Source: a virus. From it: DNA of 64,000 nucleotides. Shown one piece after another: positions 8,741 to 40,318 of this stretch (positions are counted from its first letter, which is position 1; each line of letters starts with the position of its first letter). Both the position numbers and the translations under genes were made by a program. The stretch is taken from positions 96,001 to 160,000 of IMG/VR virus record IMGVR_UViG_3300009509_000001, one strand, 5' to 3'. Below the pieces are notes generated by a model that saw only the letters and a program-made list of their open reading frames with translations, searched no databases and had not been told where the DNA came from.

Positions 8741-11566
8741 TCATTTGCCGACCGCCCGCTTCACCATGGTCTTGATCTTGCCGGTGTTTTTCGTGACGCC
8801 CTTGGCCTTGTCGTCGTATATGGCGGTGCAATACATGTCCTTGACGCAGGTGATGGGCAGTACCTGGCCAATGTGGGCCATGCACCACTTGTCGATGTGG
8901 TAGCGGGCCTTCCCGTCGTCGCCGCTTGCCCGGGCAGTCAGGATCTTTACCTTCTTGCCGTCGGCGAGCCATGCCTTTACCCGGTCGACCATGGGCTTGA
9001 TCGGTGCGCCGATGTGGCCACGGCCCTTCCATTCGGTATATCGGGCCAGCGTGCCGTCAAGGTCCACGCCGATCCATTCCTTTGCCGGGTCGTATTTGAG
9101 GGCTTTCTTGTGCAGGTCGTATCGTTGTGCGGCCGCCCGCAGCTCTTCCTGCGGTATGCCGACGTTGTGTTCATTGAGCTTGGGCCGTACGGCGTCGGCC
9201 GGTACCCGGAACATACCGCACAGCTCGCGCAGCTTGGCCTCCAGCTGGTCGGCGTCCATCGCCGCGGTCTTCCGCAGCCGTCGACTCAATGCCAGTAAAG
9301 CGGGTGCCGCCAGTGCACCGGTCGCTCCGCCGGCCAAGGCGCCGATAAGCTTGTCGTCGGCGAGCCATGCGCCGGCCGCTCCGCCCAGGCCCAGCCCGGC
9401 CAATGCCGCAGTGCCGTAGCCGCCCGGTGCCTTGGCCTTCGGCTGTTGCGGCTGCGGTTGTGGCCGTGGCGTCTGTGTGACCTGCGGTTCGACGCCTGTT
9501 TCGGGTTCGCCGTTATCGCGCATGAGCAATGCCGTGCCGCCGGCGGTGGCCGCAGTCGCCGCAGTGGCGATCGCCGCCTTCTTGCCGGTCGACATCTTGC
9601 CGGTCGCCGGCGGGTCGGTGATTCTTGCCGTGGGCTTGGCCGGCGGTGGATCGGTGATGCGTGCCGTGGACTTGGCGAAAGGCTCCGGTGCCGGCAGGGG
9701 CTCGAACCACGACCTGTTGTGCGTCGGGTCCGCGTTCCAGTCGTCGCCGTAGCCCATGACCGTTCTTGAATTTACGTTGCGCCCCTTTCCGGTCGCTTCC
9801 TGAAACTTCAGCGCCGTATCCATGTATTCGCCGGCGGCCCGCGAAAGCTTGTCGGAGTCTACGTTGCCCCTGAGCGACGGGTCTTTGCGCAGGCGATCCT
9901 TTATCGCCATGCTGACGTCGTACGGCCCGCGGCCGGACGTGTACGTGTGTCCCGGGTGGACGCGATCGATCAGCTTTTGATGGAGCCGCTGGGCGCGCGG
10001 ACCCTCCAAGTACCGCATCGCGTCCATGTACGGCATTTCGCCGGCCTTCTCGTACATGCGCTTCAGCACGCCGAAAGCGCGGGTCGCGTCCGACTCGAAC
10101 TTGAACGCCGGCGTCTTGGCCGCAGCGGTCTTCGGCAGCAGGTTGCCGACCACCACGAGCCGGTCGCGAAGGCTCGGATTCGCCATGAGCCTGAAATGGG
10201 CGTCCGCCTGCTTCTTCAGCTGCTTGGCCTTGGCGCTGGTGGTCGCCGCCACCGGACCGCCGGCCGGCAACAGCTTCTTGATGCGCAGCGCCAGGAGCTT
10301 GCGGCCGTTGATGGTGGGCTGGCCGTTCTCGTCGGTTCCTATACTTTCAACCTTCACAGGCTTGTTCTTGAATCTGCCTACGAGAACGGTGTCGCCCATC
10401 TCTATGTCGAGCACGATCTTCGCGATCTTGCGCAGCCGCGGGTCGGCCAACCGCTGCTTCAGCCGGATCTCCCGGTCGATCGCCCTGATGTCCATGTGGT
10501 AAGTTTTTATCTCAGCCTGCTTCGCCAGGGGCTTGAGCTCTCCCTTGGTCGGGCCGTCGCTCATGGCCCATTCCTTGAATTCGGCCCACGGCAGTTCGAC
10601 CACGGCGCCGTCGCGGTCCCAGCCGTCCTCGTAGTTCTGCCGGTAGGCTTGCACCGCCTGCTGCTTCGTGACGTAGCCGATCATGCACTTGTGCTCGTCG
10701 AACTTGCCGTCGGCGTCCAGCTGGTTGATCACGTACACGCTCTCGGCGTCCCATATGGTCTCGTCGTGGGGTATGCCCGGATTGATGAAGACGTCGAGAT
10801 GATCCTTGTCGTAGCCCCTGCTGCCGCGGATGTAGCCGTAGTCGTCCCACATGGTCTGGCTCCATTCGTTACCGTCGTCGTCCACTCCGCTCCTGACGGA
10901 CTTGAACGGGTTCTCGATGCTGATGTCCAGGCCGTCGATGGTTACGTGCGCCTTCTTGTAGTTCTCGGCCTTGATCTGGGCCTCGGTCGGCTGTAGCTCC
11001 ATGTCCTGGCCCTTGGCCACCCCATGCTCGACCTCCGCGGCGGTCTTGGCCAGGCGCGGTATGAGCAGCGTACTGTAGCGGTCGGCCGGGTTGCTCCACC
11101 GGATGGCGCTGATCGGAAACTTCTGGCCGCTCACGAAATTGGCGAGCCGTGCGTACTTGGCGGGGTCCACGTCCTTCTTCAGGTAGGCGACGGTGACGTG
11201 CGGCCGGTAGGTCTTGTGCGTTTCGCCCGGCATCCTGACGCCGGCGCGCACCGCCTTGTTCAATGCATGCAGGTCCGGACTGTCGACGTCGAACTTCAGC
11301 ACCTTGTAGTCGCCCTGGTCGAAGTGACTGAGCCCGCCGACGGTACCCTGCCCCTGCAGGATTTCCTTGATCGCCTCCTTCGTGGAGCGCGGGTCGTCTT
11401 CTTCATGCCCGTAGGCAAGCGTGACGTGTGGATGCTTCTCGAGGCCGAACCCGTCCTCGTCGTACAAATCCTCCTTGGCGATGGCGCGCTGGATCATAGC
11501 GATCCGAAGCGCCACGCTCCTGGGCATGTCGATGCCCATCCAACCGTATGATTTTTCTTTAGCCAT
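8741..11566 (-). CDS. 941-aa multidomain protein: 2H phosphoesterase (T4 57B/Acb1-like) + inorganic pyrophosphatase (InPase) + small beta domain + glycine-zipper hairpin + HAD phosphatase
   Basis: HxT motifs PHVTLAYG (H47) and PHVTVAYL (H123); NYKKAH..IENP..DYGYI..DKDHLDVF..DEHKCM (InPase); IEMGDTVLVGRFKNKPVKVESIGTDENGQPTING; WIGVDLDGT..ILTAR..IYDDKA (HAD motifs). Confidence 0.9.
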   Translation of the reverse strand: MAKEKSYGWMGIDMPRSVALRIAMIQRAIAKEDLYDEDGFGLEKHPHVTLAYGHEEDDPRSTKEAIKEILQGQGTVGGLSHFDQGDYKVLKFDVDSPDLHALNKAVRAGVRMPGETHKTYRPHVTVAYLKKDVDPAKYARLANFVSGQKFPISAIRWSNPADRYSTLLIPRLAKTAAEVEHGVAKGQDMELQPTEAQIKAENYKKAHVTIDGLDISIENPFKSVRSGVDDDGNEWSQTMWDDYGYIRGSRGYDKDHLDVFINPGIPHDETIWDAESVYVINQLDADGKFDEHKCMIGYVTKQQAVQAYRQNYEDGWDRDGAVVELPWAEFKEWAMSDGPTKGELKPLAKQAEIKTYHMDIRAIDREIRLKQRLADPRLRKIAKIVLDIEMGDTVLVGRFKNKPVKVESIGTDENGQPTINGRKLLALRIKKLLPAGGPVAATTSAKAKQLKKQADAHFRLMANPSLRDRLVVVGNLLPKTAAAKTPAFKFESDATRAFGVLKRMYEKAGEMPYMDAMRYLEGPRAQRLHQKLIDRVHPGHTYTSGRGPYDVSMAIKDRLRKDPSLRGNVDSDKLSRAAGEYMDTALKFQEATGKGRNVNSRTVMGYGDDWNADPTHNRSWFEPLPAPEPFAKSTARITDPPPAKPTARITDPPATGKMSTGKKAAIATAATAATAGGTALLMRDNGEPETGVEPQVTQTPRPQPQPQQPKAKAPGGYGTAALAGLGLGGAAGAWLADDKLIGALAGGATGALAAPALLALSRRLRKTAAMDADQLEAKLRELCGMFRVPADAVRPKLNEHNVGIPQEELRAAAQRYDLHKKALKYDPAKEWIGVDLDGTLARYTEWKGRGHIGAPIKPMVDRVKAWLADGKKVKILTARASGDDGKARYHIDKWCMAHIGQVLPITCVKDMYCTAIYDDKAKGVTKNTGKIKTMVKRAVGK
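9604..9677 (-). repeat. Tandem ~36-nt in-frame duplication (KSTARITDPPPA / KPTARITDPPAT)
   Basis: Visible in both DNA and protein. Confidence 0.8.
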
Positions 11567-11572
11567 GGGTAT

Positions 11573-11601
11573 AATATAGCCCGGTCATAGCTAAAAGAAA
11601 A
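11573..11601 (-). promoter_or_regulatory. Candidate promoter (TTTTCT-N17-TATATT) for a leaderless mRNA of the 941-aa gene
   Basis: The -10 ends 6 nt before ATG 11566, and that ATG has no SD. Confidence 0.45.
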
Positions 11602-11627
11602 GGCAGGGTCCTTAAAGGAACCTGCCT
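11593..11627 (-). terminator. Intrinsic terminator
   Basis: AGGCAGGTTCCT-TTA-AGGACCCTGCCT followed by TTTCTTTT. Confidence 0.85.
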
Positions 11628-11648
11628 GGATAATCGGATGATGATGTT
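11593..11648 (-). ncRNA. Candidate ~55-nt small RNA or attenuated leader
   Basis: Promoter 11655-11683 fires directly into terminator 11593-11627; leader AACAUCAUCAUCCGAUUAUCC. Confidence 0.4.
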
Positions 11649-11654
11649 ACCGGT

Positions 11655-11683
11655 AATATACACCGGCCATCATCACCCTGCAA
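11655..11683 (-). promoter_or_regulatory. sigma70-type promoter TTGCAG-N17-TATATT
   Basis: -35 at 11678-11683, -10 at 11655-11660, inside an imperfect palindrome GATGATG..CCGGT..ACCGG..CATCATC. Confidence 0.7.
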
Positions 11684-11728
11684 CCCACATCTTGTGGTTT
11701 GCGTGCGTTTTTTCTCAATATCTTGTGG
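11682..11728. promoter_or_regulatory. Tandem NrdR-box-like operators, 31 bp apart
   Basis: CCACAAGATGTGGGTT (11682-11697) and CCACAAGATATTGAGA (11713-11728) on the minus strand match the NrdR consensus acaCwAtATaTwGtg; box 1 overlaps the -35. Confidence 0.7.
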
Positions 11729-11729
11729 T

Positions 11730-12113
11730 TTATCCGGCGAACAGATGCCGCAGACGGCTCACGAGGCCCGTGAAGTCGAAGTGCGGCCAGTTCTGATGGT
11801 TGACGATCCGCTGCATGAATTCGCCGCGCTGCTCGTCCATGAGCCTGCAGGCGATCTCGTACTTCTTGCGGCGCAATACGAACGTGCATCCGTAGATGTC
11901 CGAGTCGAAATGCTCCTCGTCGGTCTCCTCGCACAGGGCCACGCGGACCCGGTAGTGGCAGTTGACGATGTCGGTGCTCAGCCGCAGGGTGGCGACGAGT
12001 TCGCAGAACTGGTAGTCCTCGTCCTCTTCGTCCCGTTCGCACGGCGGGTTGAACTCGATGACTCCGAGCGCTCCGAACATCTGCGCCCTGGGCGCGTCGA
12101 TCAATACGTTCAT
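11730..12113 (-). CDS. Hypothetical protein (127 aa)
   Basis: SD AAGGA; ATGA overlap with upstream gene. Confidence 0.7.
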   Translation of the reverse strand: MNVLIDAPRAQMFGALGVIEFNPPCERDEEDEDYQFCELVATLRLSTDIVNCHYRVRVALCEETDEEHFDSDIYGCTFVLRRKKYEIACRLMDEQRGEFMQRIVNHQNWPHFDFTGLVSRLRHLFAG

Positions 12114-12679
12114 GATATTTCCTTGATTAGCTTTTCATACATCTTGACCACCGCCTTCGAGTGTTCGACGTTGGCCTTCCATTGGTCGCACAGGCGCTGC
12201 ATGCGTCGCCTGTGCAGGTCCAGTATCAGCTCGGGCACGAGGCTCGACACGTAAAGCGTCGGCTTCTCGACCATCCACTCGGGTGCCGGCTCGGTGAGCC
12301 AGTACTCCTGCAGGATGGGGCAGCGCCACGAACTGACGTTGCCCGCCTGCACGTAGCCCGGTTCCATGTCGATGAGCCGGTACTGGATGCGCACGCTTGG
12401 CCGGTCGTGCCGGTTGCTGTAGCCGCTGCAGAAGACCTTGACCGCCACGCCGAGCGCGCGGTCGGGCTTCTTCACATGCTCGAACATGCCGTGGTCGTCG
12501 GCCACCTGGTCGTCCAGGGACTCGACCTCGAGCGCACGGCACAGGAGCCTTGCGGTCTTGGCGCTCGGCTCCATGTGCCCGTTCTCGATGCGGCTGATGT
12601 GCTGGTACGACACGTCGGCACGCTTGGCCAGTGCGGCCTGGGTGAGGCCACGGGCCTTCCGCAGTTCGCGCAGGTTCAT
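12110..12679 (-). CDS. XRE/Cro-C1 HTH domain protein (189 aa)
   Basis: MNLRELRKARGLTQAALAKRADVSYQHISRIENG; start re-assigned to 12679. Confidence 0.88.
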   Translation of the reverse strand: MNLRELRKARGLTQAALAKRADVSYQHISRIENGHMEPSAKTARLLCRALEVESLDDQVADDHGMFEHVKKPDRALGVAVKVFCSGYSNRHDRPSVRIQYRLIDMEPGYVQAGNVSSWRCPILQEYWLTEPAPEWMVEKPTLYVSSLVPELILDLHRRRMQRLCDQWKANVEHSKAVVKMYEKLIKEIS

Positions 12680-13350
12680 CAGTACGCCTTCCCGCCGTGG
12701 CGGTGCGACCGCGTGGCGTTGTAGCGTACCTTGGCGATCATGGCGCCGACCACGTCCATCTTGTTGCCGGCACTGAAGTCCAGGATGCGGATCATGGTGT
12801 CGGCCAGCTCCTCCTCGATGCCGCTGAACTCCTGAATGTGGTCGCTCGGCTTGTTGCCCTTGCGATCCCACTCCATGGCCTCGGCGAGCTCGCTCACCAT
12901 AAGCATGAAGTTCGTGGCATTGTTGTTCGGGTTCTCCCACCAGCCGTTCGCGCGGTTGACGGCGTGCAGCTGCTGCTGGAACTTACGGAGATCCGGCAGG
13001 TCCAGGAAGTCGCTTTCGTCCTTGACGTCCCAGGGGAACGGATAGGTCTCCATGACTTCCCAGTGAAGGGCCGCAAGCCCCGTGCCGAACGACCTTACCG
13101 AATTCATCAGAAGGCAGAAGGTGCCGGTGTTCGCGTACTTGTCGTGCACGTTGATGCCGTTGATGGTCGTCTTCTCGGGATCGATGCCACGGGACTTCTG
13201 GTACTCGAACAGGTTCTGCGGCAACGCGATGAACGGCTGCTTGCCGCGCTCGCGCTTGTACAGCTCGGCGAGCGCCGAGTCGAGCGCGTGCAGAAAGCTC
13301 CTGGTGTCGTCCAGGCTCATGCCCGGAATGGCATTAAGCAGAGTGCTCAT
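12679..13350 (-). CDS. MazG-like nucleotide pyrophosphohydrolase (C-terminal) with N-terminal extension (223 aa)
   Basis: GWW..LMVSELAEAME..RK..EEELADTMIRILD..KVRYNATR..HGGKAY; start 13350 after CTGGAGAAC. Confidence 0.85.
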   Translation of the reverse strand: MSTLLNAIPGMSLDDTRSFLHALDSALAELYKRERGKQPFIALPQNLFEYQKSRGIDPEKTTINGINVHDKYANTGTFCLLMNSVRSFGTGLAALHWEVMETYPFPWDVKDESDFLDLPDLRKFQQQLHAVNRANGWWENPNNNATNFMLMVSELAEAMEWDRKGNKPSDHIQEFSGIEEELADTMIRILDFSAGNKMDVVGAMIAKVRYNATRSHRHGGKAY

Positions 13351-15518: not shown

Positions 15519-15844
15519 TGTTCGAGCTCCAGGAACGCGTTTACGGTTTCGATCCAGCACTGCCTGCAGTCGGCGTCCATGTCGCACGCGCGCTTCAGGC
15601 CGAACTTGGTGTGGGACCACGGCTTCAGGTCCTCCGGCGGGCAGTCGCCGATCGGCGCGTGTGCGTCGGCCAGGCGGTCGACCACCTCGGGAAGTTCGTG
15701 CACGATCACCCGGAATCTGTCCATGTTCATTTTGCTCAGCTCTTTAACGTGGGTCTGCGCCCACAGCTGGCCGTCCTGATCCATGAACACCGGGAAGTCG
15801 TCGTACAGCCGATCCTCTTCGATGTGCCATATGCTGAATTTCAT
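15515..15844 (-). CDS. Hypothetical protein (109 aa)
   Basis: ATGA-coupled operon gene. Confidence 0.7.
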   Translation of the reverse strand: MKFSIWHIEEDRLYDDFPVFMDQDGQLWAQTHVKELSKMNMDRFRVIVHELPEVVDRLADAHAPIGDCPPEDLKPWSHTKFGLKRACDMDADCRQCWIETVNAFLELEQ

Positions 15845-16095
15845 AACGTGAAGATTATCTCCTCGATGTCTTTGCGCAGGGCCATGGTGTAGCCACGGTC
15901 GATGGCTTCCTTGGCCTTTGCGCTCTTGAACGGTTTCTTCTTGTCGGCCAGCCGCTCCGCGAGCATGTGCACGTCCGCGGTTGTCTGGGTGCTCTCGACT
16001 ACGATGTCGTATCCGTCGAGCTCCCGGTTTATCAGGAACAGGATGTTCCTGGGGAGCCCCTGGACTTCGACGTGACTTACGATTACGGTCTGCAT
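15841..16095 (-). CDS. Hypothetical protein (84 aa)
   Basis: Start re-assigned to 16095, right after the previous stop. Confidence 0.65.
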   Translation of the reverse strand: MQTVIVSHVEVQGLPRNILFLINRELDGYDIVVESTQTTADVHMLAERLADKKKPFKSAKAKEAIDRGYTMALRKDIEEIIFTL

Positions 16096-16097
16096 AC

Positions 16098-16322
16098 TCA
16101 GTCTCCGAACGCTTCGGGGTTCTTGCGGCGCCACCAGCCCTCGACCTTGATCAGGCAGGGCAGGCCCGGCAGTTGTCCGACGGGTGGATCGGGCATGGCC
16201 CCCTTCATGATGTAGGGGGTCACGCTCTTCGGAATCCATATCTGGACCTTGGTGGACTCGATCTCCATCAGCCGCGCCTTTTCGCTTTCGCGGATAAGGA
16301 AACAGTCGATGTGATCATCCAT
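16098..16322 (-). CDS. Hypothetical protein (74 aa)
   Basis: Operon-packed ORF. Confidence 0.6.
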   Translation of the reverse strand: MDDHIDCFLIRESEKARLMEIESTKVQIWIPKSVTPYIMKGAMPDPPVGQLPGLPCLIKVEGWWRRKNPEAFGD

Positions 16323-39256: not shown

Positions 39257-39919
39257 TTAAAACGAGTTTCGGAGTTCCGGGCGCCTTTCGGCCGCCTCGT
39301 CGTACTTGCGTAGCACGTATTCCGACGCGTCGTTCATCATGGCGGTCATCTTCTTGGTGCCGTTGCTGCGGCCGATGTCCGCCAGGAAGCTGCGTTTGCA
39401 CGCCAGGACCGGAACGCGGATGGACTCGTGGTATCCGGGCTCCAGCTGCGAAAGCATGCCCTGCACGTAGAGCAGGATCATGGTGATCCGCACGTGCCGG
39501 GCCTTTGTAGGTATCTTCTCATCCAGTCTCTTCTCGAACTGCGCCCACTGCCAGCTCACGTTGTCTATGAAGCGGCTGCGCTTGTACGGGTCCTGCACGA
39601 ACCCGACGTCCCTGACGATCTCCATCATGGGCGCCAGCAGGCCGAGGCCGTTGACGTGGCGCATGTAGTCGTTGACCACGAACTTCGGGTGGAACGGGTC
39701 CCACCGGACGTCAAGGCGTTCCCACATCATGGTCTGCAGGCGGATGGCGAAGTCCACGACACCATAGCGGTACCGCTTGACCATGTCCTCCCCGCTCCTG
39801 ACGTTGATGCGGTTGGCCGCGTCCTTTGCGGCAAGCTTCTGACCGGTGTAGGCCAGGGTGAACAGCTCATCAGAGCGCATGTTCAGAAGATCAGCGGGGG
39901 TAATCCCGGGTTTTTGCAT
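39257..39919 (-). CDS. Hypothetical protein (~220 aa)
   Basis: ATG 39919 after AGGA. Confidence 0.7.
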   Translation of the reverse strand: MQKPGITPADLLNMRSDELFTLAYTGQKLAAKDAANRINVRSGEDMVKRYRYGVVDFAIRLQTMMWERLDVRWDPFHPKFVVNDYMRHVNGLGLLAPMMEIVRDVGFVQDPYKRSRFIDNVSWQWAQFEKRLDEKIPTKARHVRITMILLYVQGMLSQLEPGYHESIRVPVLACKRSFLADIGRSNGTKKMTAMMNDASEYVLRKYDEAAERRPELRNSF

Positions 39920-40318
39920 AGTCCGATTATCCTGTACGTAGGCAGACATACGACCTGCCGTTAAACATCATCAAGGTTCATGCCCCGGCATATCCGGTAC
40001 CGGAGCGGATCATCATGCTCATACAGTGCGATGTACCGCGGACGATGTCAAACAAGGCGTTTGAAAAACGACGAAGTTTGATGCGTCCGACGGGACTTAT
40101 CACAGTCTCCTGCAATGGCAGGATCAGAGCGGCTGAAAGCTGCTCATCATGCCATTAAGGAGTATACTCTACGAACGGAGTGAGTAGATAGGTAATAGCG
40201 AGCGAGCGCCCGCGACGCGCATTATGCGAGCGAGCACCTGCGCACGCGTAAGCGCGCTCGCGGCCTCACCATGAAATTGAAAAACCGCGCCCCGGCGGAC
40301 CGGAACGCGGCGAGTTTG

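Follow-up and report, generated by a model that had tools for sequence, protein, structure and literature searches.

The closest described systems to the element reported here are the operators of NrdR, which the literature describes as a repressor specific to ribonucleotide reductase (RNR) genes. A mutational study of 2026 defines an NrdR site as two 16-bp boxes with the highly conserved positions C4, A6, A8, T9, T11 and G13 and an AT content of at least about 63% between C4 and G13, joined by a linker of 15-16 bp whose sequence is free and which tolerates one extra helical turn (24-27 or 26-27 bp) (PMC13584703). NrdR proteins, including those of E. coli and S. coelicolor, also bind heterologous boxes (PMC13584703), and DNA binding requires deoxyadenosine triphosphate (dATP) plus ATP (PMC9110341). 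Here we describe a tandem pair of NrdR-type boxes in a stretch of 64,000 nt, referred to as the window, which comprises positions 96001-160000 of the IMG/VR record IMGVR_UViG_3300009509_000001, a complete phage genome of 194,576 bp. The pair is followed by a promoter-like sequence (P1), a short predicted RNA, a second promoter-like sequence (P2) and the gene for a polyvalent 941-aa protein with 2H phosphoesterase and InPase domains, hereafter the polyprotein.

Compared with the operators at bacterial RNR promoters (E. coli nrdAB, nrdHIEF and nrdDG; S. coelicolor nrdAB and nrdRJ), the phage locus has the same 16-bp, partly palindromic boxes with the same core positions, a 15-16 bp linker of free sequence, an AT content of at least 63% and a placement at a promoter, predicted in the phage (PMC13584703, PMC9110341, PMC12051234). 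It differs in what lies downstream, a predicted short non-coding RNA in a phage without RNR or nrdR, and in geometry: the bacterial operators cover the start site, whereas the phage operator abuts the -35 element from upstream, at about -81 to -35.

The box pair and promoter P1

A preliminary description, made from the sequence alone, had proposed two 16-mers matching the NrdR consensus, and both are present at the proposed positions. Each box contains C4, A6, A8, T9, T11 and G13, giving 12 of 12 core positions for the pair, and the boxes are separated by a 15-bp linker. The AT fraction between C4 and G13 is 0.875 in box 1 and 0.625 in box 2, the latter at the lower limit. The left 12 nt are identical between the two boxes, and the 12-mer AAACCACAAGAT is found at these two sites only. 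Boxes were scored by the published core-position rule (PMC13584703) and not by a position-weight matrix. When both strands of the whole 194,576-bp genome were scanned in this way, the window pair was the single 12/12 pair with a 15-16 bp linker; 100 first-order Markov shuffles contained none, and an analytic estimate gives about 0.008 such pairs per genome. By every testable sequence criterion, the window boxes are thus of the NrdR type.

Control of RNR genes, which characterizes the known NrdR operators, is absent here, as the products downstream are the short RNA and the 2H/InPase polyprotein. Having passed all sequence tests and failed the functional one of RNR-operon control, the element is best classified as an NrdR-like operator outside the known regulon. 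The absence of an adjacent nrd gene had been pointed out in the preliminary description and extends to the whole phage genome, in which no RNR large subunit, ATP-cone or NrdR-family gene was found. Any NrdR acting at the boxes must therefore be that of the host.

Promoter P1 begins within the operator, with the final 2 nt of box 2 forming the opening 2 nt of the -35 hexamer; the overlap of a box with TTGCAG-N17-TATATT was thus correctly recognized at the outset. Transcription from P1 is predicted to start near 11648, so that the operator spans about -81 to -35 and leaves the -10 element and the start site uncovered. An inverted repeat lies over the -10 element of P1 (Table 1). Similar complementarity between spacer and initial transcript occurs in four of the nine related lineages described below (L141, L142, L161 and L163; z -1.8 to -2.8) and is missing from the other five; it may represent a second operator or a hairpin in a read-through RNA.

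Apart from this operator, a weaker box pair was noted at 16203-16248, with 11 of 12 core positions and a 14-bp linker, overlapping the start of the open reading frame (ORF) 15841-16239 on the minus strand. We rejected it as a true operator: 0.88 such pairs are expected by chance with linkers of 15-16 bp.

Conservation of the cassette in related lineages

Conservation of the boxes in relatives had been named beforehand as a test. To find relatives, we used homologues of the polyprotein from a protein database and from metagenome contigs and examined the DNA upstream of their genes. This yielded nine further lineages (L138, L139, L140, L141, L142, L161, L162, L163 and L164), whose 2H domains share 52-66% identity with that of the window; for L138 and L139, blastn against the window returned zero matches. 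Identical copies of the phage in two other records are uninformative for conservation.

The boxes are kept in all nine lineages. In the 52.9 kb of their sequence that was covered, each has a single 12/12 pair with a linker of 15 or 16 bp, always at the homologous place. No such pair occurs in 18 control loci (128 kb) whose InPase or 2H homologues are more distant. Across the 20 boxes of the ten lineages, positions 3, 4, 6, 8, 9, 11 and 13 are invariant. Variation is free at positions 7, 10, 12 and 16, as in the NrdR logo, and the AT fraction is at least 0.625 throughout (20/20). Pairs of lineages share on average 26% identity over the 30 nt that precede box 1, 31% across the P1 spacer and 44% across the linker, as against 100% at the core positions. 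Close variants of the window, from contigs of other studies, differ from it at linker positions 11703 and 11704 and carry one extra base immediately 5' of the terminator stem; their boxes, promoter, RNA 5' end and stem are unchanged. As the core is invariant across lineages, the flanks have diverged and the close variants spare the boxes, these comparisons indicate that the boxes are under selection as NrdR-type boxes.

The conservation extends to the layout of the entire cassette. In the nine lineages as in the window, the box pair is followed by the overlap with the -35 element, a conserved RNA 5' end and a terminator, and then by P2. All ten lineages show an overlap of 1-3 nt between the end of box 2 and the -35 hexamer of P1, which reads TTGACA, TTGACT, TTGAAA, TTGCAA or TTGCAG and is followed by a spacer of 16-17 nt. 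P1 scores 10-11 of 12 in six of the relatives and 7-8 of 12 in the window, L140 and L161. A promoter scan of 3.1 kb of L142 returned P1 and P2 as the sole promoter-like sites, with the cassette terminator listed between them.

In three of the relatives, ORF-free, hairpin-rich DNA of 1.3-3 kb lies directly upstream of the boxes (L142:1-2800, L138:1270-2400, L139:640-1880); the window phage has protein genes at this position. Neither Rfam matches nor tRNAs were found in these ORF-free stretches. Two pattern searches added no further examples of the cassette: scanning viral contigs with the motif that follows the terminator gave chance matches only, in AT-rich contigs, and scanning metagenomes with the terminator-P2-ATG pattern gave zero matches.

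The predicted short RNA and the probably leaderless polyprotein gene

The preliminary description placed a transcript of about 55 nt between P1 and a strong terminator. We predict an RNA of about 56 nt, consisting of a single-stranded 5' part, a hairpin and a U-tract, and find this arrangement in all ten lineages: the 5' part has a UCAUC core, the hairpins fold at -17 to -30 kcal/mol, and the tail is T-rich over about 6-11 positions. The predicted transcripts measure 55-70 nt, and their stem sequences differ between lineages. At the 5' end, six lineages carry AUCAUCUUCC, mostly extended by a form of AAUGAUAUC, while the window, L141, L142 and L163 carry UCAUCC(G)AUUAUC. On a MAFFT alignment, in which hairpins of unequal length were misplaced against one another, the RNAalifold consensus was for this reason weak (-1.5 kcal/mol), and single-sequence folds were used instead. 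The RNA matches no Rfam family and shows no complementarity to the start of the polyprotein mRNA (z -1.3 to +1.0).

One candidate target emerged post hoc from the phage genome, the 5' untranslated region (39917-40020, minus strand) of the ORFan 39257-39919 on the same strand. It contains GGATAATCGGA over an AGGA Shine-Dalgarno sequence, with TGATGATGTT and ATGATGAT further upstream, all complementary to the RNA 5' end. Two of the blocks co-occur with a rough post hoc p of 0.03, and the block order is permuted. The ORFan gene has no homologues.

Two more cassettes of promoter, short RNA and terminator, both without NrdR boxes, lie at 900-1133 on the minus strand, one with TTGAAA-N17-TATACT followed by about 65 nt and the other with TTGACT-N17-TACTGT followed by about 50 nt. 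The RNA of the second starts with AUCCCUAUCCCAUCC and is AUCC-rich like the ~56-nt RNA. The likeness drawn earlier between the ~56-nt RNA and a mini-RNA at 902-946 holds for style, in that an AUCC-rich 5' end leads straight into a terminator, and falls short of demonstrated homology.

The polyprotein gene begins beyond the terminator, immediately after P2. Of P2, the window shows no more than the -10 part. In nine of the ten lineages, 5-7 nt separate the end of a -10-like hexamer from the polyprotein ATG (for example at L138:2577-2615), the gap in L140 being 38 nt. Eight of the nine relatives also have a -35 element, of the TGGACT type (TTGGCT in L161, TTGCCA in L140), separated by 17-18 nt from TATAGT, TATATT or TATTTT, and in seven of these eight the ATG lies 5-7 nt past P2. 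No Shine-Dalgarno sequence precedes the polyprotein ATG, while most neighbouring genes of the same loci have one of the GGAG type. Because an ATG without a Shine-Dalgarno sequence sits 5-7 nt after a conserved P2, the polyprotein would most simply have its own leaderless mRNA, transcribed from P2. Read-through from P1 would leave the polyprotein AUG internal and without a ribosome-binding site. The attenuated read-through into the polyprotein gene that the preliminary description envisaged is accordingly unlikely to matter, given a leaderless ATG after P2 in 9/10 lineages and terminators of -17 to -30 kcal/mol.

L140 departs from this pattern. Its polyprotein lacks the 2H domain, and the start codon, here preceded by a GAGGA Shine-Dalgarno sequence, lies 38 nt past P2. 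At L140:2960-3003, the old leaderless start persists as the relic ACAACTATAGCTAAAAGAAG, in which ATG has changed to ATA. The lineage keeps the cassette of NrdR boxes, P1 and RNA.

Table 1. Features of the box-RNA-polyprotein locus, in window coordinates
Feature	Position	Strand	Remarks
NrdR box 1 (distal), CCACAAGATATTGAGA	11713..11728	-	6/6 core positions; AT 0.875; begins one base past the upstream stop
Linker, A-rich	11698..11712	-	15 bp; canonical length 15-16 bp (PMC13584703)
NrdR box 2 (promoter-proximal), CCACAAGATGTGGGTT	11682..11697	-	6/6 core positions; AT 0.625
Promoter P1	11655..11683	-	-35 TTGCAG (11683-11678), N17, -10 TATATT (11660-11655); score 8/12; sigma-70-type
Inverted repeat over P1 -10	11636..11677	-	GGTGATGATGG + CCGGT / ACCGG + CATCATCATCC; z = -1.8 vs shuffles
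Predicted RNA	11593..11648	-	~56 nt; 5' part, hairpin, U-tail
Single-stranded 5' part, AACAUCAUCAUCCGAUUAUCC	11648-11628	-	Conserved
Hairpin	11627-11601	-	Whole RNA -17.1 kcal/mol
U-tract tail, UUUCUUUU	11600-11593	-	After hairpin
Post-U-tract motif, AGCTATGAC	11584..11592	-	AGCYMTKAC in relatives
P2 -10-like element and polyprotein start	11564..11578	-	TATATT (11578-11573), 6 nt, ATG (11566-11564); without Shine-Dalgarno
Polyprotein gene (2H phosphoesterase, InPase, further domains)	8741-11566	-	941-aa polyvalent protein; anchor for finding relatives
Intergenic region		-	163 bp, between 127-aa ORF and polyprotein gene
127-aa ORF	11730-12113	-	Directly upstream; stop TAA at 11732-11730
HTH_3 regulator gene	12110-12940	-	Two genes upstream of polyprotein

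All genes around the intergenic region lie on the minus strand. For the polyprotein, which is probably an injected multi-enzyme protein, the gene callers of two public assemblies placed the start nine codons later (MGIDM..., 932 aa; region 11540-11566, minus strand); the alignment of homologues favours the upstream ATG at 11566 (MAKEKSYGW...). The phage genome has direct terminal repeats and a GC content of 59%, and the sequencing runs that contain the window originate from marine and other sediments. A megablast search of a phage collection with 5 kb of sequence gave zero matches, and relatives of the 127-aa upstream protein were not found in viral contigs. Searching genome contigs with the 2H-domain alignment returned zero relatives and hence no clue to the host. 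The phage also has, outside the window, a gene for a bacterial-type RNA polymerase beta-like subunit (G000:C1:60373-61410, minus strand; PF00562, E 2e-52, in a 1456-aa frame). Weak matches to sigma region 4 occur at G000:15034-15126 and in the helix-turn-helix of the regulator at window positions 12581-12667; Sigma70_r2 and T7-type RNA polymerase families were not found in the phage.

Readings of the cassette and comparison with known systems

On balance, we think it somewhat more likely than not that host NrdR gates a discrete small RNA, and not translation of the polyprotein, through a conserved regulatory cassette. The anatomy, rarity and conservation of the cassette are observed; that NrdR binds and represses, that the RNA is made and that it acts in trans we infer along the following lines. 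If it acts as it does at bacterial nrd promoters, NrdR carrying ATP plus dATP would bind the two boxes as a tetramer and, from about -81 to -35, would hinder RNA polymerase, so that P1 is shut while dATP is plentiful. P1 would open once dATP drops in the course of phage DNA synthesis, or once the replicated operators exceed the repressor. The product of P1 would be the small RNA itself, which would most likely act as a trans-acting riboregulator by means of its 5' seed and its terminator/U-tail module, while the polyprotein would be made separately, from P2, as a leaderless mRNA. The preliminary description had suggested that defence systems supply the trigger by depleting deoxynucleoside triphosphates (dNTPs); this is conjecture, and an ordinary drain on dATP or titration of NrdR would fit equally well. 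More tentatively still, a lineage of large sediment phages may have wired the host dATP/ATP sensor NrdR to a conserved trans-acting small RNA that would appear only on dNTP drain or repressor titration.

Several observations weigh against this reading. The -35 hexamer of the window P1 is weak, matching TTGACA at three of six positions, and P1 is for this reason absent from a strict promoter scan of the window. The operator abuts the -35 element from upstream and leaves the -10 element and the start site free, and occlusion of polymerase by NrdR is no more than plausible. The RNA 5' end falls into two sequence groups and does not form one seed. The search of the phage genome gave no convincing target, matches to the 10- and 11-mers of the RNA occurring at chance level. 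None of the sequencing runs listed as containing the locus is of the RNA type. About 23% of bacteria have no NrdR (PMC13584703), and the host of the phage may be among them. Finally, with a beta subunit and a possible sigma factor of phage origin, the polymerase that reads P1 and P2 may possibly be other than that of the host.

We also considered that the cassette could be a late-promoter/terminator gate like that of lambda pR'-6S RNA-tR'. The short RNA would then be no more than the default product of termination, and an antiterminator of the phage would load at P1 through the conserved spacer and initial-transcript motifs and permit read-through into a 10-kb virion-cargo operon (11566 to ~1200), with NrdR timing late transcription. 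The resemblance to lambda includes a sigma-70 promoter, a short terminated transcript, a long operon and a conserved spacer and initial transcript. The cassette indeed heads a long co-directional cluster in which our scan lists no same-strand terminator between 11607 and 930, its initial transcribed sequence is conserved, and the inverted repeat of spacer and initial transcript recurs in half of the lineages. A further hairpin with a T-run is visible in the sequence near 1170-1145. Unlike lambda pR', however, the phage cassette has a second promoter past the terminator, and the conservation of P2 between terminator and operon in 9/10 lineages makes read-through unnecessary. The terminators are also very strong, and no Q-family protein was detected in the phage (PF03589, PF06530 and PF06323), a weak test since the PF06323 control matched nowhere and Q proteins are diverse. 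Lambda pR' is, moreover, not under a host metabolic repressor. Taken together, we regard such a gate as unlikely.

The operator could instead serve as a decoy that soaks up host NrdR as phage genomes multiply and so derepresses host RNR, with P1 and the RNA being incidental. This would suit a phage that has no RNR gene and carries a site of top quality multiplied by replication, and orphan arrays of NrdR boxes do exist elsewhere among viral contigs, with four boxes in L067 and at least six in L077. A pure decoy, however, requires neither the fixed 1-3 nt overlap with the -35 element nor a co-conserved promoter, RNA 5' end and terminator, and each genome holds a single pair. We consider the decoy quite improbable.

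We likewise give little credence to the possibility that another protein reads the boxes, either the phage HTH_3 regulator or a different host factor, and that the similarity to NrdR sites is one of resemblance only. An HTH_3 gene does lie nearby, the identical left 12 nt of the two window boxes are typical of phage operators, and an operator at -81 to -35 is unusual for NrdR. Yet the positions that are invariant in the 20 boxes are those of the NrdR core, the variable ones vary in NrdR sites as well, and the linker has the NrdR value. Nor is the HTH gene a conserved neighbour, the DNA upstream being ORF-free in L138, L139 and L142. The remaining view, an ordinary operon boundary whose hairpin terminates the upstream operon and whose P1-like and box-like sequences are functionless, fits a hairpin about 100-135 nt past the upstream stop codon and a window P1 below the promoter-scan threshold, but we hold it to be highly improbable, since ten lineages keep the order and spacing of boxes, P1 and terminator amid flanks of random-level identity and the box pair has a chance expectation of about 0.008 per genome.

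If host NrdR does gate the small RNA, this would be the first NrdR-controlled riboregulator and would extend the NrdR regulon to non-coding RNA and to viruses. The phage would thereby gain a simple readout of the dNTP state of its host or of the progress of its own replication, and the locus would bring together three unusual features, namely a metabolic repressor of the host, a short RNA that ends at a terminator and a leaderless mRNA encoding a multi-enzyme protein. Together with other phage cases, it would make NrdR a general phage clock or sensor beyond RNR genes. Our literature search turned up neither a report of NrdR boxes at phage genes other than RNR genes nor one of a small RNA under NrdR control.

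Trans-acting small RNAs of the RybB or OmrA type combine a 5' seed with a module of Rho-independent terminator and poly-U, the module that Ishikawa et al. are said to have described in 2012 as binding Hfq. The predicted phage RNA resembles them in having its own predicted promoter, a conserved 5' end that is unpaired from +1 onwards, A/U-rich sequence leading into a GC-rich hairpin, and a tail that is U-rich over about 6-11 positions. It differs in that its seed occurs in two sequence groups and that it belongs to no Rfam family. A further likeness, which concerns P2 and not the NrdR-controlled promoter, is to the leaderless lambda cI mRNA made from PRM: the polyprotein ATG lies 5-7 nt after the -10 element, without a Shine-Dalgarno sequence, the P2 start site being predicted from sequence.

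Tandem boxes of the CCACAAGAT type with a spacing of 31-34 bp also occur in other viral contigs beside non-nrd genes, with neighbours that include terminase, portal, DnaN, peptidase, amidoligase and Acb2/Tad1-hairpin genes. Some unrelated viral contigs carry whole arrays phased at 31-33 bp, with four boxes at L067:4809-4918, next to an SPP1-type portal gene, and at least six at L077:10018-10198, next to a gene for an HTH_17 protein. Compared with these, the window cassette has a single pair in place of an array, and its immediate product is predicted to be the ~56-nt RNA. New at this locus are the predicted product, a short, conserved RNA that ends at a terminator, the presence of a single box pair in each genome, and the coupling of this pair to a polyprotein gene that is probably leaderless.

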